DNA of 32,000 nt from an uncultured Verrucomicrobiota bacterium (GCA_937860055.1 CALMBO010000009.1:54414-86413), one strand, 5' to 3'; positions 144 to 29,101 are shown, counted from the stretch's first letter. Notes: generated by a model not told the origin, from the sequence alone. Program-made: numbers and translations.

Positions 144-1567
144 GCGACTACATTCCCTCCATCGGGCTGGAAGTGCACGTGCAGCTGAAAACGCGCACGA
201 AGATGTTCTGCGCGTGTCCGGCCCACGAGGAAGGCGAGCCGAACACGACTGTCTGCCCGGTGTGCATCGGACTGCCGGGGGCGCTGCCGGTGATGAACCG
301 CGAGGCCATCCGCAAGACCGTCAAGGTGGGCCTGATGATCGGATCGCGGATTTCGCTGCGGAGCATGTTCGACCGGAAGAACTATTTCTATCCGGACATG
401 CCCAAGAACTACCAGATCACCCAGCAGGCGGCGCCGCTGTGCATCGGCGGAGCCGTGGAGATCGAGGCCGGCGGGCAGAGGAAGACCATCCGCGTGAACC
501 ACATCCACCAGGAGGAGGATGCGGCCAAAATCACGCACATGGAAACCACCTCGGAGATCGATTTCAACCGCGCCAGCACGCCGCTGATGGAGCTGGTGAC
601 GGAGCCGGACATGTCGAGTCCGGACGAGGCCATTGCGTTCCTGACGGCGCTGAAGGAGATGCTGATCTACGCGGGCATCAGCGACTGCAACCTGGAGCTG
701 GGGCATATGCGCTGCGATGTGAACTCGTCGGTGCGGCCGTCGGGGACGGACAAGCTCGGCGTGAAGTGCGAAATCAAGAACATGAACACCTTCAAGGGGA
801 TCCACCGCGCGCTGGAATACGAGCTGGAGCGGCAGGCGGAGACTCTGCGCAAGGGCGGCACGCTGGTGCAGGAAACGCGGCGCTGGGACGACGAGGCCGG
901 GATCACCCTGCCGATGCGATCAAAGGAATATGCGCACGACTACCGCTATTTCCCGGAGCCGGACCTGCCGCCGGTGGTGCTGGACGCGGCGACGGTGGAG
1001 GCGTGGCGCGCGGAGCTGCCGGAGCTGCCGGCGGTCCGGCGCGCGCGGTTCGTGAAGGACTACGGCCTGCCGGAATACGATGCGGGCGTGCTGACGGCGG
1101 ACAAGGCGATATCCGAATACTTCGAGGCGGCGGCGAAGAAGTCGAAGAACTTCAAGGCCGTGTCGAACTGGGTGATGGGCGAACTGCTGCGGGCGCTGGG
1201 CGAGAAGGGGCAGGGCATCGCGGACGCGAAGATTTCCCCGGAAGCGCTGGCGGCGCTGGTCGCGCTGGTGGACGCCAGGACGATCAACATGCCGGCGGCG
1301 AAGGATGTGTTCCAGGTTCTGTTCGAGAACGGCGGGGATCCGGCGGCCATCGTGAAGGAAAAGGGCCTGGCGCAGGTCAGCGATGCGGGGGCCATCGACG
1401 GTTTCGCGGAGCAGGCGATCGCGGCGAACGAGAAGGTCGCGGCGGAATACCGTGGCGGCAAGGAGGCGGCGCTGATGTTCCTGGTGGGGCAGGTGATGAA
1501 GCTCTCGCGCGGAAAGGCCAATCCACAGCTGGCGGCGGACGCGCTCCGCCGGAAGCTGGGAAAATAG
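140..1567 (+). CDS. gatB: Asp-tRNA(Asn)/Glu-tRNA(Gln) amidotransferase subunit B
   Basis: MSDYIPSIGLEVHVQLKTRTKMFC...PVCIGLPGALPVMN...NYFYPDMPKNYQITQ and the C-terminal YqeY-like tail (FLVGQVMKLSRGKANPQ) are full-length GatB hallmarks. I chose the start at 140 (ATGA overlap with gatA) rather than the track start at 98. Confidence 0.95.
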   Translation: MSDYIPSIGLEVHVQLKTRTKMFCACPAHEEGEPNTTVCPVCIGLPGALPVMNREAIRKTVKVGLMIGSRISLRSMFDRKNYFYPDMPKNYQITQQAAPLCIGGAVEIEAGGQRKTIRVNHIHQEEDAAKITHMETTSEIDFNRASTPLMELVTEPDMSSPDEAIAFLTALKEMLIYAGISDCNLELGHMRCDVNSSVRPSGTDKLGVKCEIKNMNTFKGIHRALEYELERQAETLRKGGTLVQETRRWDDEAGITLPMRSKEYAHDYRYFPEPDLPPVVLDAATVEAWRAELPELPAVRRARFVKDYGLPEYDAGVLTADKAISEYFEAAAKKSKNFKAVSNWVMGELLRALGEKGQGIADAKISPEALAALVALVDARTINMPAAKDVFQVLFENGGDPAAIVKEKGLAQVSDAGAIDGFAEQAIAANEKVAAEYRGGKEAALMFLVGQVMKLSRGKANPQLAADALRRKLGK

Positions 1568-1608
1568 GAGAAGCGCCCCCGGGGGGCCGGCAAGTCCCCT
1601 TCCCCGCA

Positions 1609-1634
1609 GAAGCGAAGGCGGCGCCCTTCGCTTC
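1609..1634 (+). terminator. Hairpin downstream of gatB (10-bp perfect stem, 6-nt loop), possible terminator
   Basis: GAAGCGAAGG-cggcgc-CCTTCGCTTC read directly, 42 nt after the gatB stop. No U-tract follows, so its function is uncertain. Confidence 0.35.
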
Positions 1635-1699
1635 CGGCGGGGAGCCCGGTCATCCGGTTCGTCTTGAGTTTGCGCGCAAAACATGGGATATTTCCGCAA

Positions 1700-2221
1700 A
1701 TGAATCCTCCCCATGCCATTCCGGCGACCGAGTCCTTCAAAACGGTACGGGTCGCCTCGCGTGAAGAGGCGGAGGAAGTGTCGGCGTTCCTGCTGCAGCC
1801 GGGCTTGTTCGGCACGCCCCTGACCCCCGGCGAGCAGGAGGAATTCAAGACCCATCCGGCCACGGCCGTCGGCTGCGCGGATGACGCCTACTGGTTGGTG
1901 CGGGATGGCCAAGGCGCGGTCTGCGCCGTGATCGGGGTCCGCATGAACGTGGAGAAAACCGGCATCTTCGAGGTCAGCGCGTTGGCGATCCATTCCTCCC
2001 GCCGCCGCCGGGGACTGGGCCGCCGCCTGCTCGAACTGGCATTGCGTTTCGTGGCCGAGGCCCATGGCCGCGGGCTGCTCTTCGAGACCTCCTCGGATCC
2101 CTCCTACGCGCCCATGCACAGCCTGCTGCATGCACTCGGGTTCAGGCAGGTCGGCCGGTTCCCCGATTTCTACTATCCGGGCGAAGACACACTCTGGTAT
2201 TATCGGGCGATAGAACGTTGA
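1700..2221 (+). CDS. GNAT-family N-acetyltransferase
   Basis: The acetyl-CoA binding motif region ALAIHSSRRRRGLGRRLLELALRFVAEAHG plus the ...LGFRQVG tail is typical of the GNAT fold. The first in-frame ATG is at 1700; the track starts at a TTG at 1664. Confidence 0.8.
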   Translation: MNPPHAIPATESFKTVRVASREEAEEVSAFLLQPGLFGTPLTPGEQEEFKTHPATAVGCADDAYWLVRDGQGAVCAVIGVRMNVEKTGIFEVSALAIHSSRRRRGLGRRLLELALRFVAEAHGRGLLFETSSDPSYAPMHSLLHALGFRQVGRFPDFYYPGEDTLWYYRAIER

Positions 2222-2238
2222 CTCAACCGGGATATCCG

Positions 2239-5205
2239 ATGGATCGACCACGTTTCACGCTTCCCGTCCTTTTTGCCTTGGTCCTCCTGCTGGGGGGGGG
2301 ATTGTTCGTCCTGCGCGATCGCATTCCCGAAGCCTTTTCGCTGTCCAATTCGGTTCCGTTCGAGAAATTGTCCAAGGCGGCCCGTTGCGCCGACGGGTCC
2401 TTCGCCGTCGTGTTCGATTCCAACAAGCGCATCGCACGGGTGGGGGCCGATGGTTCCCTGATCTATCTCATTCCGGCCCGCAATGCCCCGGAAAAGGGGT
2501 TTTTCTTTGCCAACGAGATCGCGTTCGACCCCGGCGGCCACCTGTATGTGGCGAGCACGTATCTCGACACCGGCACGCTGGCGGTCAACCGCGAGGCGAT
2601 CGTGCGCTTTTCCCCGGAGGGCCGCTGGGAAGGCGTCCTCTACTCGCTCGAACACGACCCCGACCAGTATGTCGACAACATCGGACTGATCCGTTCCCTC
2701 CAGTGGACTCCCGACGGCCTGCGCTTCTGCCTTGCGCGCGAAGAAGGGATCCACAGCCTGCGGGTCGATCCCGCCGACGGGACGAAGGTCGACGAAACCA
2801 TCACGCCGTTCCCTGAGGGGGCGGCCAGCGTGATCTACGCCACGATTTCCGCAGACGGCCGCGAACTGGCGTATTCCACCGGCGCCACGGAGATCTACAC
2901 GGCGGTTCCCGGCCAGACCCCCTCCAAGCGCTATGACGGGCGCGCGCTACCCGACGAGGTGTACTCGATTCCTTCGGATCTCCATTACCAGGACGGCGAA
3001 CTGTATTTTTCCGATCTGGGCCGCGACGCCATCATGCGGCTGGCGGGGGAAAACGCCGCCGAGCCCCTGTTCGACCGGGCCATCGCCCTTGCGCATGGCT
3101 ACGAAGATGCCTTTTTCGAATGCAAGGGGTTCCAGCTGGAACCCGACCACCTGACCCTGCCCAACAACGGCAAGGTGGTCTATTTCCCGACCGGAGGATC
3201 CGCCGCCATCCGCACCTTCGACCGTGCCCGGGGCACGGCCGCGCTCTGGGGCCGTCGCGCCGCCCTCTGGTCGCAAATGGGATTGTTCGCGCTCCTGTCG
3301 GTCGCGCTGGTTTCGCTGGCGATCCGCCATGCCTCGCCCGACCGGCGGCGTCTGGCGAAGCAGGTCGCGCTGGTGGCCATGATGCTGGGCACGGCGGTGG
3401 GCATCACGACCTACATGATCTTCAACAACATGAACCGGCGGCTGGCGGAGGAGGCCCGGAACAACCTGCGGGGATATCTGGCGGTCGGACAGCTGGTGGT
3501 GGATGCCGAGGCCGTGGACCGGATCCAGCATGTGAAGCACTACATGAACGAGGATTACCAGGCCGTGCTGCGGCAGCTGCGGCAGACGATCACCCGGGAG
3601 GGCGAAATCGCCTCGGGCACCTATTCGGGCGTCTACAAGATCTTCGGCGACAAGCTTTCGGCGCTGGCATACCACGACGGCCTGCGGGGCATCTTCTATC
3701 CGTACGATTACCAGTACGGCCAATCCATCTACGCGCAGGTGGCCCAGACCGGCCAGCCGTACGTTGGCGAAGTCGTGGACATCTATGGAGTCTGGCTCAA
3801 CGGCGTGATTCCGCTGGTGAGCACGAACGGCGCCACCGTCGGCCTGCTCGAAGTGGGCGTGGATCAATCCGCCCAGCGCGAAGCCAACCGCGAGCTGTTC
3901 AAGAGCACGCTGATCGATCTGGCCATGGTCCTGTTCGTGCTGCTGTTCATCTTCTTCGAAATCGGGTTCTTCAGTTCCCATGTGCTGGACCAGGCCGGAC
4001 CGGATGACGAGAGGGCCGGGCAGCGCTACGACGAAGGGGCGTTGCGGTTCGTTTCATTCCTGGCCATCACCGGTGTTTTCCTTTCCGCCTCCTTCCTGCC
4101 GTTGTACATCAAATCGCTGGCCCCGGCTGTCGGCCGCGTCCCCGACCTGATCATCGGCCTGCCGATGGTGGTTGAAACGCTCTGCGGGGCGCTGATCGCG
4201 CTGCTCTATGGCCATGTCCGGATCCGCATGGGCATCAAGACGGATGTCGTGCTGGCCTGCCTGGTGATCATGGCGGGGATGGTGGCCACGGGGCTGGCCA
4301 CGACGTTCGACCGCCTGGTCGTCGGCCGGGTGCTGGTGGGCATGGGCATGGGCCTCCTGATGATCGCGTTCCGGACCTATTTCCTGATCGAGAAAAACGA
4401 AACCCGGAAGGAATCGGGCATCATCGCGCTGACCGCCGGAGTGGTGGCGGGCATCAATACCGGATCGGTTTCCGGCGGCATGCTGGCCGACCGGGTCGGC
4501 ATGAAGCCGGTGTTCCTGATCCAGGCGGCGCTGCTGGTGCTGGCGGCGGCGGCCGCACTGGTGCTGGTCCGCAACCGCCGGCGCGGGAAGCCGGCCGTCG
4601 CGGCCGCCGTCGCCCTTTCGCCGTGGACATTCCTGCGCGACCGCGCGGTCTGGAGCTTTTTCGTCTTTGTCTTCCTGCCGGTCACAGCCTGCGGCCTTTT
4701 CCTGGGATTCCTCTTCCCGCTGTTTGCCGAAGCGCAGGGCCACACGATCAACGAGATCAGCCTGGCCTTCATGCTGTTCGGCGCCGCCAGCGTCTATCTG
4801 GGGCCGTCCCTGACGCGCCTGACCACGGTCCTGTTCGGGGCGCGGCGCGCCATGCCCGTCGGGGCGCTGGTCATGACCGGCGCGCTGCTGCTGTTCGCCT
4901 ATTTCCAGACCCTCGCGGCCGCCTACGCCACCATCATCCTCTTTGGCCTGACGGAAAGCCTGCTCTTCAACCAGGGGATGTCCTACTATTCCTCGCTGCC
5001 GGGAGTCCGCCGCTTCGGGGAAGACAAGGCGATGGGGGTCTACAATGTCTTCGAATCCGGCGGGGAGGCGCTGGGGCCGATGGCCTTCGGGCTGGCCGCG
5101 AGCATGAGCCTGGGCGCCGGCATCGCCGCCATCGCCGCCGTGCTCGGCGCCTGCGCCGTGATCTTCTGGGCGATGGGCCCGCGGCCGGGAGGGGGGCGTC
5201 CATGA
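2239..5205 (+). CDS. Multidomain membrane protein: N-terminal TM, periplasmic beta-propeller-like repeats, 2 TM, Cache/PDC-like domain, TM, then a 12-TM MFS transporter domain
   Basis: Repeated blade-like segments occur between hydrophobic helices (ADGSFAVVFD, FDPGGHLYVAS, WTPDGLRF, ISADGRELAYS, YQDGELYFSD). A second extracytoplasmic block ends in VVDIYGVWLNGVIPLVSTNGATVGLLEVGVD, a Cache-type terminal strand pattern. The C-terminal ~430 aa contain 12 hydrophobic helices with MFS-like loops. The TM parity (1+2+1 before the MFS) places both sensor domains outside and the MFS N-terminus inside. Confidence 0.75.
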   Translation: MDRPRFTLPVLFALVLLLGGGLFVLRDRIPEAFSLSNSVPFEKLSKAARCADGSFAVVFDSNKRIARVGADGSLIYLIPARNAPEKGFFFANEIAFDPGGHLYVASTYLDTGTLAVNREAIVRFSPEGRWEGVLYSLEHDPDQYVDNIGLIRSLQWTPDGLRFCLAREEGIHSLRVDPADGTKVDETITPFPEGAASVIYATISADGRELAYSTGATEIYTAVPGQTPSKRYDGRALPDEVYSIPSDLHYQDGELYFSDLGRDAIMRLAGENAAEPLFDRAIALAHGYEDAFFECKGFQLEPDHLTLPNNGKVVYFPTGGSAAIRTFDRARGTAALWGRRAALWSQMGLFALLSVALVSLAIRHASPDRRRLAKQVALVAMMLGTAVGITTYMIFNNMNRRLAEEARNNLRGYLAVGQLVVDAEAVDRIQHVKHYMNEDYQAVLRQLRQTITREGEIASGTYSGVYKIFGDKLSALAYHDGLRGIFYPYDYQYGQSIYAQVAQTGQPYVGEVVDIYGVWLNGVIPLVSTNGATVGLLEVGVDQSAQREANRELFKSTLIDLAMVLFVLLFIFFEIGFFSSHVLDQAGPDDERAGQRYDEGALRFVSFLAITGVFLSASFLPLYIKSLAPAVGRVPDLIIGLPMVVETLCGALIALLYGHVRIRMGIKTDVVLACLVIMAGMVATGLATTFDRLVVGRVLVGMGMGLLMIAFRTYFLIEKNETRKESGIIALTAGVVAGINTGSVSGGMLADRVGMKPVFLIQAALLVLAAAAALVLVRNRRRGKPAVAAAVALSPWTFLRDRAVWSFFVFVFLPVTACGLFLGFLFPLFAEAQGHTINEISLAFMLFGAASVYLGPSLTRLTTVLFGARRAMPVGALVMTGALLLFAYFQTLAAAYATIILFGLTESLLFNQGMSYYSSLPGVRRFGEDKAMGVYNVFESGGEALGPMAFGLAASMSLGAGIAAIAAVLGACAVIFWAMGPRPGGGRP

Positions 5206-6812
5206 GAGGGGTTGGCTGGTACCGCAGGCAGACGGTCCGGTGGAAGATCTTCATTCCGTTCTTCGCCATCACCCTTCTGTCGTCCACGCTGTTCACCGTC
5301 TACGGCTTCATCCAGAACAACCGGGCCATCGTCAACGAGATCGACAAGCGCCTGCTCATTGCCGCGTTGACGATGCCGCAGCTGCTGCCGGCGGATTATT
5401 TCGACCGGGTGCAGGCGCCGGACAGCATCCCGGAGGAGGAGCACTGGGCCCACACGCGGAGGCTGGAGCTCTTTCTCCGCAACGTCGGCGGCACGTACCT
5501 CTACGCGCTGCACAACGTGAGCAACCGGTACTACTTCGTTGCGTCCGCCGCCCTGGACACGCCGTATTGGACGGAATACGAGAAGCCGGCGCCGAACATC
5601 TACGAGGTCCAGAAGACGTGGCAGCCGCACATTTCGACCACGCCCGATCCGGACTACGGGCTGCTCCGTTCCGTCGTGATCGGGTACAAGGATTCGGCGG
5701 GCCGCCGCTTCATCATCGGGGCCGACATCCATGCCTACGAGGTGGCCGCGCTCAAGCGACGCGCGTTCCTGAACTTCTTCATGATGGGCGCGGCCAGTTT
5801 CTTCCTGGCGGTCCTGTTCAGCTATGTCGCCAGCACGGCCATCACGCAGCCGCTGTCCCGCCTCTCGAACTTCACCCGCCGCCTGGTGGAAGGCGGTTTT
5901 TCCGCCGCCATCCGGGTGGATCCCACCCTGTTTCCGGACGGGAACCAGACCGGTTCCGAAACCGCGATCCTGGCCTACGACTTCGACCAGATGCAGACGA
6001 ACCTCGCCGCGCATATCGAGCAGCTGAAGCTCACGCAATCCGCGCGGGAACGCGCGGAGAGCGAGCTGCGGATCGCCGGCCAGATCCAGGCGACCTTCCT
6101 TCCGGGCGCGTTCGACCCGTCCCTCTTCGGCGGGCGTGTGCAGATGCAGGCCGCCATGAAGACGGCCAAGCAGGCGGGCGGCGACTTGTACGACTACTTC
6201 GCGCTCGACGAGTCGCACCTGTTTTTCGCCATCGGGGATGTTTCGGGAAAGGGCATGCCGTCCGCCATGTTCATGTCGGCCGTGGTGGTGCTGCTCCGTT
6301 CCGCCGCCAAGCAGCTGCGCGATCCCGCGGAGATCCTGCGGCGGGTGAACGACGATCTGGCGATCCGCAACGAGAGCTGCACCTTCGTGACCCTCTTCAT
6401 CGGGATCCTCGACACCCTCACCGGCGAGGTGGTGCTGGCCAACGGCGGTCACAACCCGCCCCGCCGCCTGGGCGCCGACGGCGCGGTTTCCGGCGTGCCC
6501 GTGAAGACCAACATCGTCGTGGGGGCCGTGGACGGGGCGACATTCGCCCGCGAGACGCTGCTTTTGCGGCCTGGCGAGACGCTGTTCCTCTACACGGACG
6601 GCGTGACCGAGGCGATCGACGAAGGCGGAAAGCTCTATGGGGAGGAGCGCATGGATCGCCGGCTCTCCGCGTTGCCGGCGAAGGGGGGCGTTCCGGAGGT
6701 CATTCAGGGGGTTTCCGACGATGTCGCCGCCTTCAGCGGTTCGCGGGACCAGTCCGATGACATTACCCTGCTGGCGTTGCGGTACGAGCCCCGCGGGGCG
6801 AAAACTTCTTGA
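5202..6812 (+). CDS. Transmembrane PP2C/SpoIIE-family serine phosphatase (RsbU-like) with periplasmic Cache-like domain and HAMP linker
   Basis: TM (IFIPFFAITLLSSTLFTVYGF), a ~170-aa periplasmic domain, a second TM, then a HAMP-like segment (ITQPLSRLSNFTRRLVEGGF). The SpoIIE/PP2C core follows (GGDLYDYF...FFAIGDVSGKGMPSAMFMS...LYTDGVTEA...QSDDITLLAL). The ATG at 5202 overlaps the upstream TGA (ATGA). Confidence 0.85.
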   Translation: MRGVGWYRRQTVRWKIFIPFFAITLLSSTLFTVYGFIQNNRAIVNEIDKRLLIAALTMPQLLPADYFDRVQAPDSIPEEEHWAHTRRLELFLRNVGGTYLYALHNVSNRYYFVASAALDTPYWTEYEKPAPNIYEVQKTWQPHISTTPDPDYGLLRSVVIGYKDSAGRRFIIGADIHAYEVAALKRRAFLNFFMMGAASFFLAVLFSYVASTAITQPLSRLSNFTRRLVEGGFSAAIRVDPTLFPDGNQTGSETAILAYDFDQMQTNLAAHIEQLKLTQSARERAESELRIAGQIQATFLPGAFDPSLFGGRVQMQAAMKTAKQAGGDLYDYFALDESHLFFAIGDVSGKGMPSAMFMSAVVVLLRSAAKQLRDPAEILRRVNDDLAIRNESCTFVTLFIGILDTLTGEVVLANGGHNPPRRLGADGAVSGVPVKTNIVVGAVDGATFARETLLLRPGETLFLYTDGVTEAIDEGGKLYGEERMDRRLSALPAKGGVPEVIQGVSDDVAAFSGSRDQSDDITLLALRYEPRGAKTS

Positions 6813-6883
6813 TTGGGCGGGCAAGGATGCGACAGGATGATTTTATATGACGAGGTCAAGGATCGTCGGGAAGGTGGTGCGGC

Positions 6884-7219
6884 ATGGTGATCTCCATTGA
6901 GAAGCAGGGTGAAACGGCGATCGTGGCGGCGGGCGGGCGGCTGGATGCCGTGGGGGCGCCGGAGCTTGAAGCGCGCGGAAAGGCGTCGATCCAGGAAGGA
7001 TCGAAGCGGCTGCTGCTGGATCTGGCCAAGGTGGAATACATCAGCAGCGCCGGCTTGAGGAGCCTCCTGGTCCTGGCCAAGACGGTGAAGGCGGCCGGGG
7101 GGGGGATGGCCCTGTGCAGCCTCACCCCGGCTGTCCGCGAAGTGATGACCATGTCCGGCTTCGACAACATCTTGTCGCTGGCGGCGGACCGTTCCGCCGC
7201 GATGGGGCTTTTGAAATAG
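6884..7219 (+). CDS. STAS-domain anti-sigma-factor antagonist (RsbV/SpoIIAA-like)
   Basis: LLLDLAKVEYISSAGLRSLLVL contains the phosphorylatable Ser motif (Ser54). ...MALCSLTPAVREVMTMSGFDNIL parallels the SpoIIAA C-terminal region. Confidence 0.9.
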   Translation: MVISIEKQGETAIVAAGGRLDAVGAPELEARGKASIQEGSKRLLLDLAKVEYISSAGLRSLLVLAKTVKAAGGGMALCSLTPAVREVMTMSGFDNILSLAADRSAAMGLLK

Positions 7220-7238
7220 GCCCCGGGTTTCCGCGCCC

Positions 7239-7646
7239 ATGATGGAATTCTCCATGGTCAATACCGTTGCCGACCAGCAGCGGGTGATGGACGAGGTGGA
7301 AGCCCTCCTGTCGGCCCGTTCGGTTTCCGCCCGGCGGAAATCCGCGGTCCGCCTCGCCCTGGACGAGCTGTTGTCCAACGTCATCCAGTACGCCTATGAC
7401 GACGGCGGCGTCCACCGGATCGGGGTGAAGATCGATCCGGGAATCCCGTTCGTCCTGGCCATCGAAGACGACGGGCGGCCGTTCGATCCCTTGTCGGATG
7501 CGCCGGCGCCGGTCCTCGAAGGCCCGGTGGAGGATCGGCCCGTCGGCGGGCTGGGGCTGCACCTTCTCCGCTCGATGGGCATGGAGATGGACTACCGGCG
7601 CGAGAAGGGCCGCAACATCCTGCGCGTGGTTTTTCCCGGGGAATAG
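7239..7646 (+). CDS. Anti-sigma regulatory factor-type Ser kinase (RsbW/SpoIIAB-like, HATPase_c)
   Basis: N-box ALDELLSNVIQYAY, G1 EDDGRPFDP and G2 GGLGLHLL are present. It is 135 aa and lies 19 nt after the STAS gene. Confidence 0.85.
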   Translation: MMEFSMVNTVADQQRVMDEVEALLSARSVSARRKSAVRLALDELLSNVIQYAYDDGGVHRIGVKIDPGIPFVLAIEDDGRPFDPLSDAPAPVLEGPVEDRPVGGLGLHLLRSMGMEMDYRREKGRNILRVVFPGE

Positions 7647-7664
7647 GGGGCGGCCTTGTCTTCC

Positions 7665-8357
7665 ATGCTGTACATGAGCAGTCCGATCAACGCCCTGCTG
7701 GAGGGGTTCTATCGCGACGACATCACGATCGACACCCTGAGGGAGAAAGGCGACTTCGGCATCGGCACGTTCAACAACCTCGACGGCGAGATGATCGCCC
7801 TTGGCGGCCGGTTCTTCCAGCTCGACCTCGATGGCAACGCCCGTCCGGCGGAAGGCGGCATGAAGACGCCCTTTTCCACCGTCTGCCATTTCCAGCCGGT
7901 GTTGTCGGAGGAAATCGCCATGCCGCTGTCGCACGAGGCCTTCACGGAGCGGCTGAAGGGCATCCTGCCGTCGGACAACATGTTCTATGCCCTCCACATG
8001 GAGGGGCGGTTCCGGGCGGTCAAGACGCGATCCGTGCCGCGGACGGAGAACTACCGGCCGCTTTCCGAGGCGACGGAACGCCAGAAGATCCGCCAGTTCC
8101 AGGATGTCGAGGGGCATCTGGTGGGATTCTACACGCCGTCGTTCGTTCCCTCGGTCAACGTGCCGGGATACCACTTTCATTTCATCGACAAGACCTTTTC
8201 GGCGGGCGGCCATCTGCTGAGTTGCGAGCCGGGGCATCTGGACATCCGGTTGCAGATCTTCTTCAGCATGGAGCTGACGCTTCCCAAGACGCTCGACTAC
8301 CTGACGGCTTCCTTCACGCGCGACGCGAAGAAGGACCTGGAAAAAGCCGAGAAATGA
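7665..8357 (+). CDS. budA: Alpha-acetolactate decarboxylase
   Basis: LYMSSPINALLEGFYRDDITI...GDFGIGTFNNLDGEMIALGGRFFQL...PFSTVCHF...GFYTP...VPGYHFHFI matches the AlsD/BudA family along its length. An alternative TTG start lies at 7656. Confidence 0.85.
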   Translation: MLYMSSPINALLEGFYRDDITIDTLREKGDFGIGTFNNLDGEMIALGGRFFQLDLDGNARPAEGGMKTPFSTVCHFQPVLSEEIAMPLSHEAFTERLKGILPSDNMFYALHMEGRFRAVKTRSVPRTENYRPLSEATERQKIRQFQDVEGHLVGFYTPSFVPSVNVPGYHFHFIDKTFSAGGHLLSCEPGHLDIRLQIFFSMELTLPKTLDYLTASFTRDAKKDLEKAEK

Positions 8358-8363
8358 TCCGGC

Positions 8364-11312
8364 TCAGGCGGCGCGCCCGGAGCTTTTCTTTCCCGGGAGG
8401 CGCACGGCGAGAAGCGCGGCGAGGGCCGCATTCATGAGCCAGAGCGCCGCCATGTCGAAGCCGTAGGTGCGGAACGTTTTTCCCGCGATCCGCTTTTCGC
8501 CGGCCATGAAGGGGGCGCGCCCCCATGCCGATCCGGGCGGCTGGTAGACGGGATCCGAAAGCCGGACGAGCCGGCCGCCCTGGATGCGGAGCGGCGCCAA
8601 CAGGCCCCTGTTGCGGGCCAGTTCGGCGATTCTCCGGTTGGTGTGCGCCTTGACGAAGGCCGACAGCCCGTCCTCGCCGTGTTCGGCGAGCAAGGCGTTG
8701 TGGATGTCGTTGCGGCGGCTCTGGACCGTTTGACGTCCGGCCTGTTCCGCGCGGGACAATTCGCGCAGGCTGGACTTGAGCGCATCCAGCCCGGAACGAT
8801 CCGGCGGGCGGAGACGGGCGGCGGCGAGGGCGGCGCCGGACAGGCGGCCGGATTCACCCTCCAGGGCGCGGAATTCGCGGACGAGCAGCGCGCGGGTTTC
8901 CTCGCGCTGTTCCGGGGTCGCGGAATCCAGGTAGAGCGCGTCGAGGCGTCCGATGATCGCGGGAATCCAATCGTTCACGAGATAGTCGATCCGGGAGAGC
9001 TCCCGGTCGACCTCCTCGAATTGCCGCTGGCAGGCGTTGGATTGGAATTGTTCGACAACCAGCGCCTCGAAGGCCCAGCGGGAGGCCGTGAGCTCGCCGA
9101 TCAGGGGGGGATGGGCGTTCGGAGCGTCTCGGGAGCGGAGATCGTCGTAGGAGACGATGAGCCCGCCCAGCAGCATCTGGGGCAGGAGCAGCAGCGGCAG
9201 CAGGATATAAACGGTGACGGCCGATTTGAACCAGGACGAGACATTGAGGCCCAGGAAGCCGCCGAAGACGGCGGCCGAGAACAGGGCGAACCAGAGCTTG
9301 GCGAAGAAGCCGGGGATCTGCAGGATGCCGGCGCCGATTCCCGCGCACACGCCTGTCTGGAGAAGGGCCAGGAGAACGACATGGAACATCTTGGCTCCGG
9401 AATAGGCGCTCCAGCTCAAATGGAGAAACCGCTCGCGGCGGAGCATGCGGCGGTCGCGCACGATTTCCTCCGCGCTCACGCTCAGGCCCAGGAAGATCGC
9501 CACGATGACGGACATGAAAAAGTAGATGTGGAGGTAGGGGTTGTCGCCGAGGACATAGGAGCCGCCGGGCGCGGCATGGCAGAGCCATGCGGTGAGGAGG
9601 GCGAGCAGCGGCGGTTCCAGCAGGTTCACGAGCCGGTAGGCGCGGTTGGCGAAGCGGGCGCGGAACGTGCGCGAGAAGAACACGGCGAGCTGGCGTGGCC
9701 ATGAGGGACGGTTGAGCTGGCGGGGCGGGAGGCCGGCGGCCTTCGTTTCGGCGGCCGGCGCCGGGGCGCTCTTCCTCCAGGCCTCGTGCCAGAACTCCGG
9801 CGGGAATTTCCGCTCGCGGGAGAAACGGCCATCGGCGTCGATCTCCTTGGATTCGATGATGGAAAAGATCTGTTCGGGGTTGACGTTTCCGCACTCGGGG
9901 CAGACGCTGCGGTCGGAGCCCGCCAGATGGGCGGCTTCGCGGAAGTGGCGGGCGGCTTCCAGGGGATGGCCCATGTAGATGGGGACGCCGCCCCGGTCGA
10001 GGATCCACAGCGCGTCGAAGAGCCGGAACAGGTTGGAGGAGGGCTGGTGGATGATCACGATGACCAGCCGTCCGCGGGCGGCCTGCGCCTTGAGCAGCCC
10101 CATGACGATGTCGGAGTCCGCGGAGGAGAGGCCGGAGGTGGGTTCGTCCACAAAGAGGACGGAGGGTTCGCGGATGAGTTCCAGCGCGATGTTCAGCCGC
10201 TTGCGCTGCCCGCCGCTGATGGTTTTCGCCAGCGGGTCGCCCACCCGGAGATCGGCGATCTCCTCCTGGTGGAGTTCCCGGAGCATTTGGCGGACGCGCT
10301 CGCGGCGTTCCTCGTCCGCCAGTTTGGCGAGGCAAAGGCGGGCGTTGTAGTCCAGGTTTTCCCGGACGGTCAGATCCTCGAAGAGCAGGTCGTCCTGGGG
10401 GACGTATCCGATGACGCCTTCGAGCGCGCCGGGGTTCCGGTACAGGTCGATTCCATTGAGGACGACCCGTCCGGAGCCGGGAGGGAGGCTCCCGTTGAGC
10501 AGGTTGATGAGCGTGGATTTTCCGACGCCGCTGCCGCCCATCACGCCGATGAGGCGTCCTCCCGTTTCGCGGAAGGAAAACCCATGGATGCCCTGTTCAC
10601 CGCCCGGAAAGCGGTACTCGACGTCTTCGGCTTCGAACCGGATCGGGGCGGAAACCGCGGCAAGGTCGAACAGGCGTTCGATTTCACAAAGGTAGGCCGC
10701 CTGTCCGCCGGGGTCGCGGAGGATCGAGCCGGGTTCGAGGGGATGGAACCGGCCGGGCGCGACCGGGTTTTCATCGAGGGAAAGCTCGCCTTGCAGGACG
10801 CGGATGAAGAAGCGCCCCGTCCACGGGCTGTGAAGGGCGGCGATTTCCGCGCGCCAGCCGGCGCGACGGAAGCGCCGGCAGAGAGGGGTGTCGGGCGAGG
10901 CGGGCGTGGCGGCGGCGAATTGCCGCCAGGCCTCCAGTTCGGCTTCGGGCACATGGAAGGCTTCCGCCACGCGGGCCATGAGACGGTCGACCCGTTCGCC
11001 GGAATCCGGGAGCGAATGGCGGATCTGCAGCGCGTGCAGCAGGAACGACTGCTTTTCGCCGGGCGACAGGAGGGTGGCGAGGCGGGCGCAGACCCCGTCG
11101 ATGCCGTGTTCGGGGGCGTCGGAGCCGGCTTGTTCCGCGTAGAGCTCCAGGAGATCGCCGAAAATGCCGAAGCTGGCATCCGTGCGGCGGAGCCCCATCG
11201 TGCCGACGAGGTAATCCTCCACCAGCCGGGCGGCTTCGTCCTTCTTTTCTCCCGCCAGCGCGGAAAAAACGGCGAATACGTGGATGATCCCGTTCAGCGA
11301 ATGTTCATGCAT
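8364..11312 (-). CDS. ABCG-type (NBD-then-ABC-2 TMD) half transporter with ~250-aa N-terminal extension and a ~230-aa loop before the last TM
   Basis: Walker A GGSGVGKST, Q-loop VPQDD, signature ISGGQRKRLNIA, Walker B LFVDEPTSGL and H-loop IIHQPS, followed by hydrophobic helices typical of the ABC-2/ABCG order. A CPECG motif lies between NBD and TMD. The terminal TM is AALWLMNAALAALLAV. Confidence 0.85.
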   Translation of the reverse strand: MHEHSLNGIIHVFAVFSALAGEKKDEAARLVEDYLVGTMGLRRTDASFGIFGDLLELYAEQAGSDAPEHGIDGVCARLATLLSPGEKQSFLLHALQIRHSLPDSGERVDRLMARVAEAFHVPEAELEAWRQFAAATPASPDTPLCRRFRRAGWRAEIAALHSPWTGRFFIRVLQGELSLDENPVAPGRFHPLEPGSILRDPGGQAAYLCEIERLFDLAAVSAPIRFEAEDVEYRFPGGEQGIHGFSFRETGGRLIGVMGGSGVGKSTLINLLNGSLPPGSGRVVLNGIDLYRNPGALEGVIGYVPQDDLLFEDLTVRENLDYNARLCLAKLADEERRERVRQMLRELHQEEIADLRVGDPLAKTISGGQRKRLNIALELIREPSVLFVDEPTSGLSSADSDIVMGLLKAQAARGRLVIVIIHQPSSNLFRLFDALWILDRGGVPIYMGHPLEAARHFREAAHLAGSDRSVCPECGNVNPEQIFSIIESKEIDADGRFSRERKFPPEFWHEAWRKSAPAPAAETKAAGLPPRQLNRPSWPRQLAVFFSRTFRARFANRAYRLVNLLEPPLLALLTAWLCHAAPGGSYVLGDNPYLHIYFFMSVIVAIFLGLSVSAEEIVRDRRMLRRERFLHLSWSAYSGAKMFHVVLLALLQTGVCAGIGAGILQIPGFFAKLWFALFSAAVFGGFLGLNVSSWFKSAVTVYILLPLLLLPQMLLGGLIVSYDDLRSRDAPNAHPPLIGELTASRWAFEALVVEQFQSNACQRQFEEVDRELSRIDYLVNDWIPAIIGRLDALYLDSATPEQREETRALLVREFRALEGESGRLSGAALAAARLRPPDRSGLDALKSSLRELSRAEQAGRQTVQSRRNDIHNALLAEHGEDGLSAFVKAHTNRRIAELARNRGLLAPLRIQGGRLVRLSDPVYQPPGSAWGRAPFMAGEKRIAGKTFRTYGFDMAALWLMNAALAALLAVRLPGKKSSGRAA

Positions 11313-11333: not shown

Positions 11334-12155
11334 CTACTGGAGGATTTCCTTGCGGGCCTTGGCGATGGCGGGCCGCAGCTCATCCAGCTGTGCGGCGGAG
11401 ATGGCGGGCTGATCGCCCAGGATGACAAGGATGGAGACCAGCAGGTTGAGGCGGTCGTGCTTCTGGACCGTCATGGCGAACTCGGGGCTGTCGCCCAGGC
11501 GATAGAGGAGCCTCTTGTAGGCCTGGAAGGAGTCCCGCATATAGGCGACATACATCATGGAGGACGGGCTGTAGTTGGAAAGGACGCACAATTCGGAGGT
11601 GAGATGCAGTCCTTCGATCAGGAAGCCATAGAGGCCATCCACCACGAGATCGACGCCTTCGCCGGTCTGCAGCTTGTCCTGCCAGATTTCATCCTTTTCC
11701 TGGTCCTTGGCCAGTTGCCGCAGCCGTTCCTCCCCGCCGGGCTGGTCGATCTGGTCGAGCGCCTCGCGGTAGCGGCGTTCCATGTCGGGTTGCGGATAGC
11801 CCAGCTGTTCCAGCAGCCGGTAGAGGCCCTGGCCATAGCGGGCGGTGGGTTCGCGCTGGTCGAACGTCGATGCATAGGTCAGGTCCATCAGGTACACGCC
11901 CACCATCAGGCGGCGCCTTTCCATGCTTTGGAACCGGTCGACATCGACGGGGGCGACGAGTTCCGGCAGATAGGAGGATCCGCTTTCGCGCAAGGCCGCC
12001 ATCACTTCGCCCATCCGGGGCCCTTCCTTCTGGACGGCCTCGACATCGCCTTGGATCTGCTTCCGGAGTTCGTCGGAGATCTCGAATTCGGAAGCTTCCA
12101 GCGCCGTCGCCATCAACGCCATCCCCAACGCCATGCCGCATGCCTTCATCTTCAC
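11334..12155 (-). CDS. Secreted (Sec signal peptide) helical protein of unknown function
   Basis: High GC at third codon positions on the minus strand. AGGAGG lies 6 nt upstream of the GTG at 12155 (ATG at 12149 is an alternative). The N-terminus (V)KMKACGMALGMALMATALEA-SE looks like a signal peptide. I recognise no family. The stop is 21 nt upstream of the ABC gene start. Confidence 0.6.
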   Translation of the reverse strand: MKMKACGMALGMALMATALEASEFEISDELRKQIQGDVEAVQKEGPRMGEVMAALRESGSSYLPELVAPVDVDRFQSMERRRLMVGVYLMDLTYASTFDQREPTARYGQGLYRLLEQLGYPQPDMERRYREALDQIDQPGGEERLRQLAKDQEKDEIWQDKLQTGEGVDLVVDGLYGFLIEGLHLTSELCVLSNYSPSSMMYVAYMRDSFQAYKRLLYRLGDSPEFAMTVQKHDRLNLLVSILVILGDQPAISAAQLDELRPAIAKARKEILQ

Positions 12156-12383
12156 GTGCCACCTCCTGTTTCCCGTGGACCCGGCGACCGCCGGTCGCCA
12201 ACATGCGGGAGAATGCTGAACCATTCGGGAAGTCGCGTCAACGGTTTTGTGATTTCCCGGCCCGGCGCTTCCGCGACTCCCGGCATAGGCAGGGCGAGGC
12301 GGCCGGCGGATGGGGCCTGGCCGTTTCCTTGCCTTGCCGGGGTCGTTGTGCTACAAGGGCCCCAACCAAGAAAGGCGGGACAC

Positions 12384-12746
12384 ATGGCTTTGACGCTGAA
12401 GGTTGCTGAGAATACGCCGCGCATCTTCGTGGTGTCGCTGGGCGGGTCGCTGGATAGCACCACTTTTCCCGCGCTGGAGAAGAAAATGGACTCCCTGATC
12501 GTCGAAGGCGCGGCCAAGGCCATCACGCTGGACCTGGCCGGGCTGGAGTTCATCAGCAGCATGGGCATCCGGGTCATCTTCAAGGCCAAGAAAGACCTGG
12601 TGCGCACCGGCGGCTCCCTGTTCCTGGCGCGGGTTCCGCCGCCCATCCAGAAGGCCCTGGAAATCATCAATGCGCTTCCGTCCATGCAGATTTTCTCCAG
12701 CATCCAGGAAATGGACGACTATCTGGCCAAGATGCAGAAGCCATAG
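12384..12746 (+). CDS. Second, orphan STAS-domain protein (anti-sigma-factor antagonist family)
   Basis: ITLDLAGLEFISSMGIRVIFKAKKDL has Ser58 at the phospho-site position. ...GGSLFLARVPPPIQKALEIINAL is the STAS C-terminal helix region. Only the last 120 codons of the 986-aa track ORF are credible. Confidence 0.85.
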   Translation: MALTLKVAENTPRIFVVSLGGSLDSTTFPALEKKMDSLIVEGAAKAITLDLAGLEFISSMGIRVIFKAKKDLVRTGGSLFLARVPPPIQKALEIINALPSMQIFSSIQEMDDYLAKMQKP

Positions 12747-24183: not shown

Positions 24184-25233
24184 GTGCCTACGTTGACGAC
24201 CGGCGAATTGGCGGCGAAGCTGGGGGCCGCGCTCGAGGGGGATTCCGGCATCGTTCTGCAGGGCGTGTCGGATCTGCGCGCGGCGGGGGCGGGCCAGGTG
24301 TCGTTCGCGGGGAATCCGAAGTACCTGCCCGAAGTGGCGGCCAGCCGCGCTTCGGCGGTGATCGTGCCGAAGGAGGCGGCGATCCCCGCGCCCCATCCCG
24401 CGCTGCTGCGCGCGGCGGATGCCGATGCGGCCTTCGCCGCGGCCTGCGCGCTCTTCGCGCCCAGGCCGGTGGTGCTGCCGCGCGGGGTGCATCCGCAGGC
24501 GCTGGTTTCGCCGCAGGCGAAGCTGGGCAGGGAAGTTTCCATCGGCGCCTTCGCGGTGGTGGAGGCCGGGGCCGTGATCGGGGACGGCACCACGCTCTAT
24601 CCGCAGACCTACGTCGGCCACGAGGCGAAGCTGGGCCGGGACTGCCTGCTCTATCCCTTCGCCAGCGTGCGCGAGAGGTGCGAGCTGGGCGACCGGGTCA
24701 TCCTGCACAACGGAGCGGTCATCGGCAGCGACGGGTTCGGCTACGCGGTGGATGCGAAGGGGGTGCGCACCAAGATCCCGCAGACGGGCATCGTGGTGCT
24801 GGAGGACGATGTCGAGATCGGCGCGAACACGACGGTGGACCGCGCGCGGTTCGGCCGGACGCGGGTGGGGAAGGGCACCAAGGTGGACAACCTGGTCATG
24901 ATCGCCCACAACTGCGTCATCGGCGAACATTCGGTGCTGTGTTCCCAGGTGGGGCTGGCGGGGACCACCACGCTGGGCAATCATGTGATCTGCGCCGGGC
25001 AGGCGGGTCTGGCCGGGCATCTGACGGTTGGCGATGGCGCCGTGGTCGGTGCGCAGGCGGGCGTCTCGAAGGATCTGCCCGGCGGCCAGATGTATCTGGG
25101 CGCGCCGGCGGTTCCGCGGCTGGAGTTTGGCCGGTCCCTTGCGCACGTGGCGGGGATTCCCAAGCTCAAGGAGCAAATCAAGGCCCTGGAGGCCCGGCTG
25201 GCCGCGCTGGAGCGCGGCGGGACCGAGGCATAG
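24184..25233 (+). CDS. lpxD: UDP-3-O-acylglucosamine N-acyltransferase
   Basis: The N-terminal region (LAAKLGAALEGDSGIVLQGVSDLRAAGAGQVSFAGNPKY) is followed by left-handed beta-helix hexapeptide repeats (IGDGTTL.., IGANTTVDRA.., IAHNCVIGEHS..). GTG start with GGAGGGG upstream. Confidence 0.9.
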   Translation: MPTLTTGELAAKLGAALEGDSGIVLQGVSDLRAAGAGQVSFAGNPKYLPEVAASRASAVIVPKEAAIPAPHPALLRAADADAAFAAACALFAPRPVVLPRGVHPQALVSPQAKLGREVSIGAFAVVEAGAVIGDGTTLYPQTYVGHEAKLGRDCLLYPFASVRERCELGDRVILHNGAVIGSDGFGYAVDAKGVRTKIPQTGIVVLEDDVEIGANTTVDRARFGRTRVGKGTKVDNLVMIAHNCVIGEHSVLCSQVGLAGTTTLGNHVICAGQAGLAGHLTVGDGAVVGAQAGVSKDLPGGQMYLGAPAVPRLEFGRSLAHVAGIPKLKEQIKALEARLAALERGGTEA

Positions 25234-25303
25234 GATCAAAATCAACGACGCCCGGCGGAATGCGCGGCCGCGGGCGGACATTTCCACGCGCGAGGTGGAC
25301 GAG

Positions 25304-28300: not shown

Positions 28301-29101
28301 GGGTTCCGCCGCGACATCTGCGCGCGGAAGTCCTTCTCGAAGCTCCGCAGCGCCATCGCGGGCATCTACGACTACCGGCGCATGTACGACGAGGCCGAAT
28401 ACGCCTTCAAGCAGTCCATCGACCTGTATCCGCTGAGCCCGGAGGCCAACTTCCGCCTGGCGCAGATGTACATGAACATGCAGCGGTTCGAGGATGCCGG
28501 GAACCTCATCCGGGCCTTTGCGGAGGCCGACCCCAAGAACGAAAGCTCCAAGGGGTTCCTCGCCCAGATCGAGGGCACGATGAAGATGTCCCAGCGCCGG
28601 AGAGAGATCGAGCGGAAGCAGCAGGAGACGGGTGTCCTGACTCCCGACGAGGCGCTCGAGCTGGTGTCGATCTACCGCGCCTCGGGCATGCAGGGGGCCT
28701 ACCAGAACCTGGCTTCGCGCCTGCTTTCCGACACGAATCTTCCGCCGCAGCACATCCTCGCGCTGGCGAGCTTCTTCGCGCAGGAGCAACGCGTCGAGGG
28801 CCTGATCTATGCGCTGGAGCAGTACGTCCGGCAGGAGAGCGGAAACCTGGACGTGTGGCTCGACCTGGCCGCCGCCCATGCCTTCCTGCGGCGCGACGCG
28901 AACGCCATCGAGGCCACGCGCCGGGCCATCGAGATCGGCGGCGACCGCGCCCGCGAGGCGATTCTGCGCGACCCGCGCTTCCAGCCGCTGGCCACCAACC
29001 GCGAATTCCGCGCGCTCTTCCCGCGACAGACCGCCCCGCGTCCGGCCGGTCCCGTTCCGTTCCAGGGCGGCGCGCTGCCGAATCTGCCCGGCCTGAGATA
29101 G
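25304..29101 (+). CDS. DUF2723 (TMEM260-like, GT-C-fold-type) polytopic membrane protein with C-terminal soluble region and TPR repeats
   Basis: The N-terminal motif YFYTLAPTLTLEDSGELAVASDYLGVPHPPGYPIW matches the DUF2723 signature as I recall it. More than 15 hydrophobic helices follow. The C-terminal TPR-like repeats include YDEAEYAFKQSIDLYPLSPEANFRLAQMYMNMQRFEDA. Confidence 0.7.
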   Translation: MTLTKASEKQIEKLAAQAQAGFLDNATGAFFRRIDWWAFWIVFLATFGVYFYTLAPTLTLEDSGELAVASDYLGVPHPPGYPIWTLVTWFFQWVFHWVTYHGHPNPAWSVGLASAVAGAGACALLALLISRSGADLLRSIPALTDKVGFRTENLFCLVAGISGGLLLAFSPVLWSQSVIVEVYSLNALFQLAVLLLIYMWMCRPKSDTLLFLAAFLFGLGLTNHQTLLFLGLALAVAVLMKDANLFRDFAIAAVLVGVVFLLAAKGVGVVVGKAQMELAGADPTIWKWSRGPYTEPFWIYNYLFLAVPIALALGSALRDRTASARLGFGFLASMAIYLCMVAAAAFHLRLLAGNAQLAPEVMQEAQGFSPWLFNSLLPPETERAASPFAAWLWQGPGQRLGFLLQVSLLLPVVLALVRLPHGKTVCATILLAELGVAFYLYLPFASEQNPPMNWGYPRTWEGFMHAVTRGQYEAIVPTDVFSEKFIQQLGAYLSDLRSQFSLPVAVLGFLPFCSWGLVLGGKRRSAFPLALGLVLASSALIVLETVAGWTGAEKLYRLLIAPILLLAGWGFFTLLALYLNKQISDLRNYALGTKLVIGGFLAVVALGVVWVDVMTLKALFTDKTLSQMGRVIFAGVVIGPPVAVALAWALGRSRFQLDSDLGVSQQRWLLTSMVGFFSVSVIFLIFQNPQLDIQNLFIGRVQFIQSHALYSLWLGYGILLSTAWLERMLGRKALLPAMLAGLLLPGILLWQNGYDEEQLRIVGGAEQNGHHYGWQFGNWSLEGIGGIREDFQYWFPDEEDFAREWGALTSAMGKPEPDYPPPMTEGAIFYGGTDPGRFVPTYMIYSADVRPDVYLITQNALADNTFMNITRDLYGDTIYIPSLEDSNEAFRKYVDDVNAGRIQAGADIKIENGKVSVQGVGGVMTINGILADLIFKENKDKHDFYVEESYVIGWMYPYLTPHGIIMKLNRDPVTSLDPQLVENDHKFWGWYTKWLLDQPGFRRDICARKSFSKLRSAIAGIYDYRRMYDEAEYAFKQSIDLYPLSPEANFRLAQMYMNMQRFEDAGNLIRAFAEADPKNESSKGFLAQIEGTMKMSQRRREIERKQQETGVLTPDEALELVSIYRASGMQGAYQNLASRLLSDTNLPPQHILALASFFAQEQRVEGLIYALEQYVRQESGNLDVWLDLAAAHAFLRRDANAIEATRRAIEIGGDRAREAILRDPRFQPLATNREFRALFPRQTAPRPAGPVPFQGGALPNLPGLR

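Follow-up and report, generated by a model that had tools for sequence, protein, structure and literature searches.

We analyzed a 32-kb stretch of DNA from an uncultured Verrucomicrobiota bacterium (GCA_937860055.1, CALMBO010000009.1:54414-86413; all 32,000 nucleotides are referred to here as the window) that encodes an unusual membrane protein in which two predicted periplasmic sensor domains are fused to a transporter of the major facilitator superfamily (MFS). The gene for this sensor-MFS fusion is preceded by that of a GNAT N-acetyltransferase and followed by those of a membrane-bound PP2C phosphatase, a STAS protein, and a serine kinase. The window has a G+C content of ~65%, and its high-GC3 open reading frames (ORFs) yield a clean gene map. 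An original prediction, made from the sequence of the window, had treated the fusion, PP2C, STAS, and kinase genes as one four-gene unit. Comparison with related loci shows that the conserved unit is instead GNAT, sensor-MFS, and PP2C, and not the PP2C-STAS-kinase set. The genes in question are as follows.

1664..2221, plus strand: GNAT N-acetyltransferase, 185 amino acids from the TTG at 1664, first gene of the conserved triad (Pfam Acetyltransf_1, E 7e-8)
2239..5205, plus strand: sensor-fused MFS protein, 988 amino acids, 16 transmembrane (TM) helices, with full-length orthologs at 50-100% identity
5202..5205, plus strand: ATGA stop/start overlap between the fusion and PP2C genes, with overlap or abutment also in L001, L006, L007, L008, and G2A
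5202..6812, plus strand: membrane PP2C of the SpoIIE/RsbU family, 536 amino acids (Pfam SpoIIE, E 1e-45)
6884..7219, plus strand: single-domain STAS protein, 111 amino acids (Pfam STAS, E 5e-18; TIGR00377, E 1e-20)
7239..7646, plus strand: RsbW/SpoIIAB-like serine kinase, 130-135 amino acids (Pfam HATPase_c_2, E 8e-20; RsbW 6m36, E 2e-3)

Read from the sequence, the junctions are as tight as had been predicted. The GNAT stop codon (TGA, 2219-2221) is separated by 17 nucleotides from the ATG of the fusion at 2239, and the TGA of the fusion (5203-5205) overlaps the PP2C start codon. Further downstream, the PP2C-STAS, STAS-kinase, and kinase-AlsD gaps measure 71, 19, and 9 nucleotides. Gene callers at other loci place the GNAT start ~12 codons after TTG 1664, and the best match of this protein in the PDB is 2r7h, a putative D-Ala N-acetyltransferase (E 3e-6). 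A promoter and terminator scan of positions 1400-8600 gave results no better than those for shuffled sequence, so the scan neither supports nor opposes co-transcription.

The anatomy of the fusion was examined with an AlphaFold2 (AF2) model built from 38 homologs, which reached a predicted local distance difference test (pLDDT) score of 85 and a predicted template modeling (pTM) score of 0.77; the N-terminal half alone reached 88 and 0.87. The model and the hydropathy profile agree on 4 + 12 TM helices, beginning with TM1 at residues 7-25. The remaining segments are listed below.

2335..3231, plus strand: ectodomain 1, an all-beta, six-bladed NHL-type beta-propeller, residues 33-331 (AF2 pLDDT about 90+)
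3238..3504, plus strand: TM2, a short cytoplasmic turn, and TM3 (within residues 334-400) with a periplasmic stalk helix, residues 334-422 in all (hydropathy; AF2 helices 334-363 and 367-420)
3505..3864, plus strand: ectodomain 2, Cache-like alpha/beta domain, residues 423-542 (AF2 topology; sub-threshold Pfam matches)
3865..3966, plus strand: TM4 of the sensor module, residues 543-576, with the membrane-embedded E574 (unchanged in 47/47 diverse sensor-MFS proteins)
4009..5175, plus strand: 12-TM MFS domain of the DHA1 (drug/amine:H+ antiporter) type, residues 591-979 (Pfam MFS_1)

The predicted layout of two ectodomains, four TM helices, and a 12-TM transporter within 988 residues is thus borne out by AF2, hydropathy, and Foldseek. 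The best Foldseek matches of the propeller are the NHL domains of TRIM71, Thin, and TRIM2 (E 4e-10 to 1e-8, TM-score on target 0.60-0.66). In Pfam, the propeller gives a weak match to SGL (E 0.012) and none to NHL, so its agreement with NHL domains is at the level of the fold only. Ectodomain 2 matches sCache_3_2 and sCache_3_3 with E about 9e-4 and ~20 bits versus a curated cut-off of 28; because these matches fall below the cut-off, "Cache-like" is the appropriate wording. A PDB sequence search with the N-terminal 604 amino acids returned no match. Profile searches of both sensor domains therefore give weak matches, and it is the fold and topology that support their assignment.

The transporter domain is complete, as had been proposed: MFS_1 (PF07690) aligns to residues 604-947 over profile positions 3-347 of 347 (E 1.7e-25; 90.1 bits versus a cut-off of 33.4), and all twelve MFS helices are present in the AF2 model between residues 591 and 979, as two six-helix bundles. 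Its nearest structures in Foldseek are NorA, VMAT1/2, SotB, and SPNS2 (TM-score on target 0.73-0.86), and its best partial NCBIfam match is MdtG. By analogy with DHA1 transporters, the domain probably operates in the export direction. The fourth helix of the MFS domain contains R697xxxG701xGxG705, which we take to be motif B, and the fifth contains G738xxxG742SxxG746G747xL, presumably motif C with its Pro replaced by Ser. Of 47 family members, 45-47 retain the glycines of these two stretches, and only 26 retain R697. Two charged residues flank the junction between sensor and transporter, E574 close to where TM4 reaches the cytoplasm and R603 where the first MFS helix begins; both are invariant across the 47 diverse MFS fusions, and in MFS fusions only. 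The position of E574 is acidic in 0 of 25 relatives in which the sensor is fused to a HAMP-cyclase or kinase. This pattern suggests that E574 and R603 may form a coupling element specific to MFS fusions.

The PP2C comprises a TM helix (residues 16-34), a periplasmic domain of ~150 amino acids (35-187), a second TM helix (188-206), a linker (207-336), and a PPM domain (337-528) that accounts for the match to SpoIIE (PF07228). In its GDVSGKG, DGVTE, and DDIT stretches, D328, D346, D466, D519, and D520 are invariant together with the glycines (alignment A5), and these aspartates we take to belong to the PPM metal-binding motifs. Relatives in the PDB include Rv1364c, Pseudomonas aeruginosa RssB, SiaA (6k4e), and SpoIIE; no PDB sequence match covers the periplasmic part. 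Of the Cache-HAMP-PP2C architecture originally proposed, the two-TM PP2C stands, and neither HAMP nor Cache was detected by Pfam. HAMP (PF00672) is present in full-length PP2C homologs at 33-36% identity, and the NCBIfam models of SiaA and BaeS are matched in part over residues 191-384. The periplasmic domain and second TM helix align to the Cache domain and TM4 of the fusion (hhalign E 3.8e-4, probability 36%), a weak hint that the two domains may be paralogous.

To place the locus in context, we collected homologs of the fusion, which fall into 61 clusters, 57 of them full length (985-1010 amino acids, 50-100% identity). Where an organism is named, it belongs to Kiritimatiellia or to "uncultured Desulfobulbus." Six annotated neighborhoods and nineteen genome loci were surveyed with tblastn, with up to 10 kb of flank each; the genome loci are labeled Verrucomicrobiota, Kiritimatiellia, or Victivallales, with one metagenome-assembled genome (MAG) of Competibacteraceae. 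Wherever the flanks of an ortholog locus are covered (49-100% identity), the fusion is immediately preceded by the GNAT gene and immediately followed by that of PP2C. The GNAT, which had been suggested as a possible member of the unit, thus belongs to it. The triad spans Kiritimatiellia/Verrucomicrobiota MAGs, Victivallales, and Desulfobulbus, and the overlap or abutment of the fusion and PP2C genes is kept wherever gene calls are listed; the genes around the triad are unrelated between clades. In the far orthologs, PP2C retains 60-64% identity versus 49-57% for the fusion. PP2C orthologs form 58 clusters at 60% identity or higher, followed by a gap down to 40% or lower, which mirrors the boundary of the fusion family (61 clusters).

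The pairing also recurs beyond the orthologs. In L028, the PP2C paralog P0121 is encoded divergently beside a 1036-residue sensor-MFS protein that is 26% identical to that of the window and 50% identical to that of L042, and in L042 itself a full-length window-type PP2C (E 5e-135, 37% identity) lies divergently upstream of the sensor-MFS gene. A second, soluble SpoIIE phosphatase (396 amino acids; L028 2270-3460, minus strand) is encoded immediately downstream of the divergent sensor-MFS gene, so PP2C genes are found on both sides of that fusion. A 791-residue "MFS" protein beside the PP2C paralog P0136 (L078) proved unrelated to the sensor-MFS family, with no phmmer match.

The STAS protein and the kinase show the features predicted for an antagonist with a phospho-Ser motif and an RsbW-type kinase, and their motif residues, like those of PP2C, are intact. 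STAS aligns end to end with SpoIIAA (1th8_B), with YISSAGL opposite FMDSSGL and S54-S55 on the SS of DSSGL; S55 (codon 7046-7048) is the predicted phospho-acceptor. It scores 73 bits against TIGR00377 (cut-off 53), and the kinase scores 71.5 bits against HATPase_c_2 (PF13581; cut-off 27.4). The distribution of the two genes differs from that of the triad. Together with alsD, which encodes an alpha-acetolactate decarboxylase, they are present directly after PP2C in L003-5, 9-13, 15, 16, and 20, loci whose fusions are mostly at least 77% identical to that of the window. STAS and kinase occur in none of the sequenced 3' flanks of L008, L014, L017, L019, and L026, which extend to 10 kb in three of the five (L008, L014, and L019), and AlsD is likewise undetected there. 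Pairing of PP2C with these particular STAS and kinase genes is accordingly a clade-specific trait. In the Desulfobulbus loci L001, L002, and L006, only a divergent kinase is found, upstream, and no STAS gene was found.

In the clade at 49-52% identity (L007, L024, L025, and G2A), STAS takes another form and is joined to GPP34, a GOLPH3-like domain (Pfam E 3e-49). The fusion is encoded at 14772-15788 in L007, at 67-1089 and 7107-8189 in L024, and at 10517-11548 of contig G2A_hy4d, and is cut by the contig end in L025. Its STAS part is 43-46% identical to the window STAS. STAS proteins accordingly recur beside the triad in three clades, differing in form, and STAS-GPP34 is a candidate for a non-sigma output of the switch. 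The proposed four-gene unit does not hold across the family, in that STAS and kinase adjoin PP2C only in the close clade and are elsewhere moved, replaced, represented by a divergent kinase, or absent; the expected co-occurrence is found for PP2C in every covered ortholog locus and not for the STAS-kinase pair. Membership of AlsD in the unit is unproven, as it co-occurs only with the close-clade STAS-kinase block. A 252-residue hypothetical protein encoded 3' of PP2C in L007, L024, and L025 was also considered and set aside; it has no family match, and its matches in the close clade are weak and on the opposite strand.

The sensor half of the fusion has a much wider distribution. Residues 1-594 were compared exhaustively with 1.84 billion representatives by phmmer, and 453 of these (50% clustering) carry the whole 580-residue module at the N terminus, at 20-29% identity. 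The arrangement in the window is not an isolated case but one variant within this wide family. The C-terminal parts of the best 149 of the 453 representatives were classified, with spot checks in Pfam, as follows.

84 of the best 149: MFS fusion
47 of the best 149: HAMP and class III adenylate/guanylate cyclase
4 of the best 149: histidine kinase, three with detected HAMP and one a Pfam-confirmed hybrid kinase
14 of the best 149: HAMP only, fragments, or unclassified

The 580 residues at the N terminus form a true sensor module, one that in other proteins provides the input to HAMP-cyclases and histidine kinases, and for that reason we read the ectodomains of the fusion as sensors. Among the members with names are WP_223036972.1, encoded by the cultured Clostridium-class organism Crassaminicella profunda, and a protein of a Peptococcaceae MAG. 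Several residues are common to the MFS-type and cyclase-type modules, namely Y103, E119, and D259 of the propeller and Y440, Y462, Y466, W519, and E538 of the Cache-like domain, and they point to what may be a common ligand class. Annotations of the sensor-MFS family go no further than "MFS transporter."

The largest distant subfamily, which shares about 22-25% identity with the window fusion, was used to scan metagenomes and gave 47 loci. About 20 loci, from ~9 distinct lineages, contain a cassette in which the sensor-MFS gene is followed by one for a sensor-HAMP-Guanylate_cyc protein (~920 amino acids, with a paralogous sensor) and then by a Formyl_trans_N gene (for example, L030 6801-13801, L034 7986-14890, and L048 7839-14857). 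The sensor-MFS and sensor-cyclase genes overlap by 4 nucleotides in L034 and L048, the loci in which the boundaries were checked. No STAS or kinase gene is found near these cyclase-type cassettes. In L040, a GNAT gene of the orthologous type (hidden Markov model [HMM] E 1e-37) lies directly upstream of a distant sensor-MFS gene, and in C. profunda (L077) a GNAT gene (E 3e-46 to the window-clade HMM) precedes the sensor-MFS gene, with a 916-residue HAMP-cyclase encoded two genes away. The GNAT, PP2C, and cyclase cassettes together define a recurring design that consists of an amine N-acylating enzyme, a sensor-MFS protein, and a HAMP-type membrane signaling enzyme. In L076 (7101-12623), two tandem sensor-HAMP-cyclase genes carry the same N-terminal module with no MFS partner.

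Separately, three unrelated settings were seen in which GNAT and sensor-MFS genes adjoin or lie within contractile-injection clusters, with nothing of the kind in the window. These are type VI secretion system (T6SS) genes of TssJ/K/L/M/A-type Pfam families in Desulfobulbus (L001 14805-22961 and L006 14801-22961), a phage-sheath-like gene in L040 (12022-14257), and an extracellular contractile injection system (eCIS)/Photorhabdus virulence cassette (PVC)-like cluster in C. profunda (L077 1-7451 and 14711-18964) with Phage_Mu_Gp48/Tail_P2_I baseplate, Pvc16_N, and DUF4280 families. This neighborhood may be a coincidence, or it may hint at a control target of the module.

Other features of the window lie outside the triad.

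98-1567: gatB, from the ORF map
7656..8357, plus strand: alpha-acetolactate decarboxylase, alsD (Pfam AAL_decarboxy, E 6e-69)
8364-11312, minus strand: fused ABC-2 transporter, 982 amino acids, the first 240 of which have no family match
12384..12746, plus strand: second, orphan STAS protein, 120 amino acids (Pfam STAS, E 7e-20), syntenic in L011, L012, L013, and L020

The orphan STAS gene, 5 kb downstream, neighbors the ABC-2 transporter gene and that of a 296-residue protein (11334-12224, minus strand) without a Pfam or NCBIfam match, and this group is syntenic in close relatives. The orphan STAS protein may be a further substrate on which the window phosphatase and kinase act. Between 15910 and 21251 on the minus strand, a same-strand run contains the Pfam families DsbD_TM, SBF, SAM methyltransferase, LMWPc (ArsC-type), thioredoxin, and ArsP_1 permease; we read it as a putative set of arsenic/redox resistance genes, with SBF possibly of the ACR3 type and the methyltransferase possibly ArsM-like. 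A 1357-residue protein (25028-29101, plus strand) combines a TMEM260-like O-mannosyltransferase domain with C-terminal TPR repeats. Because its ORF begins 200 nucleotides within the preceding one, that of lpxD (24184-25233), translation probably starts further downstream.

With modest confidence, we favor a model in which the ligand-sensing exporter acts as a co-sensor for PP2C and so drives a sigma-independent STAS switch. In this model, the NHL propeller and the Cache-like domain of the fusion would bind an extracytoplasmic ligand, and the signal would pass through TM4 straight into the first helix of the DHA1-type exporter domain, possibly by way of the charged pair E574/R603. Because the sensor signal would enter the exporter at this helix, ligand state and transport state would be coupled. 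The sensor-MFS protein would then serve as co-sensor, or transceptor, for the co-translated PP2C, which itself has a putative Cache-like ectodomain. Active PP2C would dephosphorylate STAS~P at S55, the RsbW-like kinase would re-phosphorylate it, and free STAS or kinase would act on a non-sigma target. The GNAT probably N-acetylates an amine-type compound handled by the exporter, so that the transported substrate may be an amine made or modified by this enzyme. A transceptor feeding the phosphatase was one of two roles suggested in the original prediction, and it is the one best supported by the comparative data, among them the invariance of the triad, the matching family boundaries of fusion and PP2C, the pairing of PP2C with sensor-MFS proteins again in L028 and L042, and the parallel cassettes with a cyclase.

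A more speculative extension, which we consider distinctly unlikely, is that the module forms a self-signaling, quorum-sensing-like loop. A small acylated amine made by a cytoplasmic N-acyl/formyl-transferase would be exported by the DHA1-type transporter, gated by its NHL-propeller and Cache sensor, and its outside concentration would be read by the paralogous ectodomain of a HAMP-type reader enzyme, which would be either PP2C feeding the STAS switch or a class III cyclase. In some lineages, where the genes lie inside T6SS or extracellular contractile-injection-system clusters, such a loop may control these systems.

Several points weigh against the co-sensor model. Contact between the fusion and PP2C is something we infer from gene order. 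The five ortholog loci named above have neither STAS nor kinase in their 3' flanks, and three PP2C paralog contexts (L029, L078, and L079) contain no sensor-MFS gene. HAMP and Cache escape detection in PP2C by Pfam even at E<=1, and the similarity between the Cache-like domains of PP2C and the fusion is weak. The MFS domain has a motif A without its Asp, and the motif assignments as a whole are tentative. It is also possible that a sigma factor is encoded elsewhere in the genome.

The main rival to the co-sensor model is parallel, independent sensing, a real possibility that we nevertheless judge not to be the likely one. The sensor-MFS protein would be a ligand-gated exporter (or importer) that works with the GNAT in detoxification or homeostasis, and PP2C would act as a receptor in its own right for that ligand or a compound related to it, the two sharing an operon through common physiology and forming no complex. 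Both the PP2C and the cyclase partners carry ectodomains of their own and would need no co-sensor, the nearest MFS structures are those of ordinary exporters, and an operon of a GNAT and a DHA1 exporter without signaling is known in Bacillus subtilis blt-bltD. The stop/start overlap, however, is kept across phyla and with two classes of partner enzyme, the sensor of the partner is paralogous to that of the transporter in the cyclase cassettes and possibly so in PP2C, as expected for hetero-oligomerizing receptors, and a 580-residue signaling-type sensor module would be superfluous for a plain exporter. The data do not separate parallel sensing from the co-sensor model.

A conventional sigma switch, in which the RsbW-like kinase is the anti-sigma factor for a sigma factor encoded elsewhere and the set is an RsbU-RsbV-RsbW system with an unusual input, appears unlikely. 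STAS and kinase do match models of anti-sigma factor antagonists and of RsbW (TIGR00377, E 1e-20; PRK04069, E 1e-5), and the flanks inspected extend up to 10 kb per locus. Against this, the kinase matches RsbW only weakly (6m36, E 2e-3), falling far under the equivalog cut-off (24.8 bits versus 145), and the fusion of STAS to GPP34 in sister clades points to non-sigma outputs. As the original prediction had stated, no Pfam sigma factor family matches any plausible ORF of the 32 kb, and none was found in the roughly 10 related neighborhoods whose genes were annotated.

The second role suggested originally, that the transporter is itself the target of the STAS/kinase pair, is highly improbable. 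It draws on the proximity of the genes in the window and on an analogy with SulP/SLC26 transporters, which are regulated by STAS domains. STAS and kinase, however, are the least conserved neighbors of the fusion; neither occurs in the flanks sequenced for five orthologs or in any cyclase-type cassette, and the invariable gene partner of the fusion is PP2C. An assembly or frameshift artefact, or a chance adjacency of unrelated genes, is virtually negligible in view of the 57 full-length homolog clusters from independent assemblies, the identical fusion protein on 18 contigs, the confident single-chain AF2 model, and the triad in every covered locus.

If the co-sensor model is correct, the sensor-MFS proteins represent a new input logic, in which an ectodomain sensor of canonical type connects straight to a secondary transporter. 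The MFS domain takes the position that HAMP and a kinase or cyclase occupy in the paralogs, and the resulting protein is paired with a second-messenger or phospho-switch enzyme. The family that pairs sensing transporters with a signaling enzyme is large, uncharacterized, and apparently undescribed: a full-text literature search, with incomplete coverage, returned no description of a sensor-fused MFS protein, of the triad, or of the cyclase cassette, which given that coverage is absence of evidence only. Such proteins offer an entry point to what the "orphan" partner switches of Planctomycetes-Verrucomicrobia-Chlamydiae superphylum bacteria and Desulfobacterota sense and control, and to how transport state becomes a signal. 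Experiments are feasible, since a family member occurs in the cultured C. profunda.

Among known partner switches, a classical sigma-linked Rsb module shares its phosphatase, STAS, and kinase features with the window and differs in having a cognate sigma factor encoded in the operon or close to it. The Rsb system of Chlamydia trachomatis, also of the Planctomycetes-Verrucomicrobia-Chlamydiae superphylum, comprises RsbU, RsbW, and RsbV1/V2 (PMC11619594) and likewise has a TM-periplasmic sensor-TM-PP2C protein, STAS antagonists, an RsbW kinase, and no dedicated alternative sigma factor in the locus (PMC11619594). Unlike the window, it has no sensor-MFS or GNAT partner, and sequence similarity is confined to the PPM domain. 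In P. aeruginosa SiaABCD, a membrane PP2C also opposes a kinase on a small phospho-protein with a sigma-independent output. SiaA, which carries a HAMP domain, is the best partial NCBIfam match of the window PP2C (E 2e-12), at 46 bits versus a cut-off of 700. Unlike the Sia system, the window encodes no SiaD diguanylate cyclase, or indeed any GGDEF gene, and the phosphatase substrate would be a canonical STAS protein. On the output side, the switch resembles the sigma-independent SypE/SypA pair.

On the transporter side, blt-bltD of B. subtilis encodes a DHA1 exporter and a spermidine/spermine acetyltransferase. The window similarly combines a GNAT and a DHA1-type MFS exporter in one apparent operon, probably with an amine substrate, whereas blt-bltD has no sensor ectodomains or signaling enzyme and the GNATs are not demonstrably orthologous. 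Escherichia coli UhpC (an MFS protein) with the kinase UhpB, DctA or DcuB with DcuS, and BceAB with BceS are transporter/sensor pairs that act in co-sensing. By analogy with these neighboring genes, the window transporter would report substrate or flux to the adjacent membrane signaling enzyme, and it is the gene order that suggests such a dependence here. Unlike the UhpC/UhpB-type pairs, the window MFS protein has a 580-residue, two-domain ectodomain sensor of its own, its partner is a PP2C (a class III cyclase in relatives) rather than a histidine kinase, and an acyltransferase is part of the unit. CbrA, an SLC5/SSSF domain fused to a histidine kinase, likewise joins a secondary-transporter domain and signaling elements on one polypeptide. 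In CbrA, however, the transporter is the N-terminal input to the kinase, whereas in the window fusion the ectodomain sensor is N-terminal and the MFS domain occupies the position of HAMP and output.

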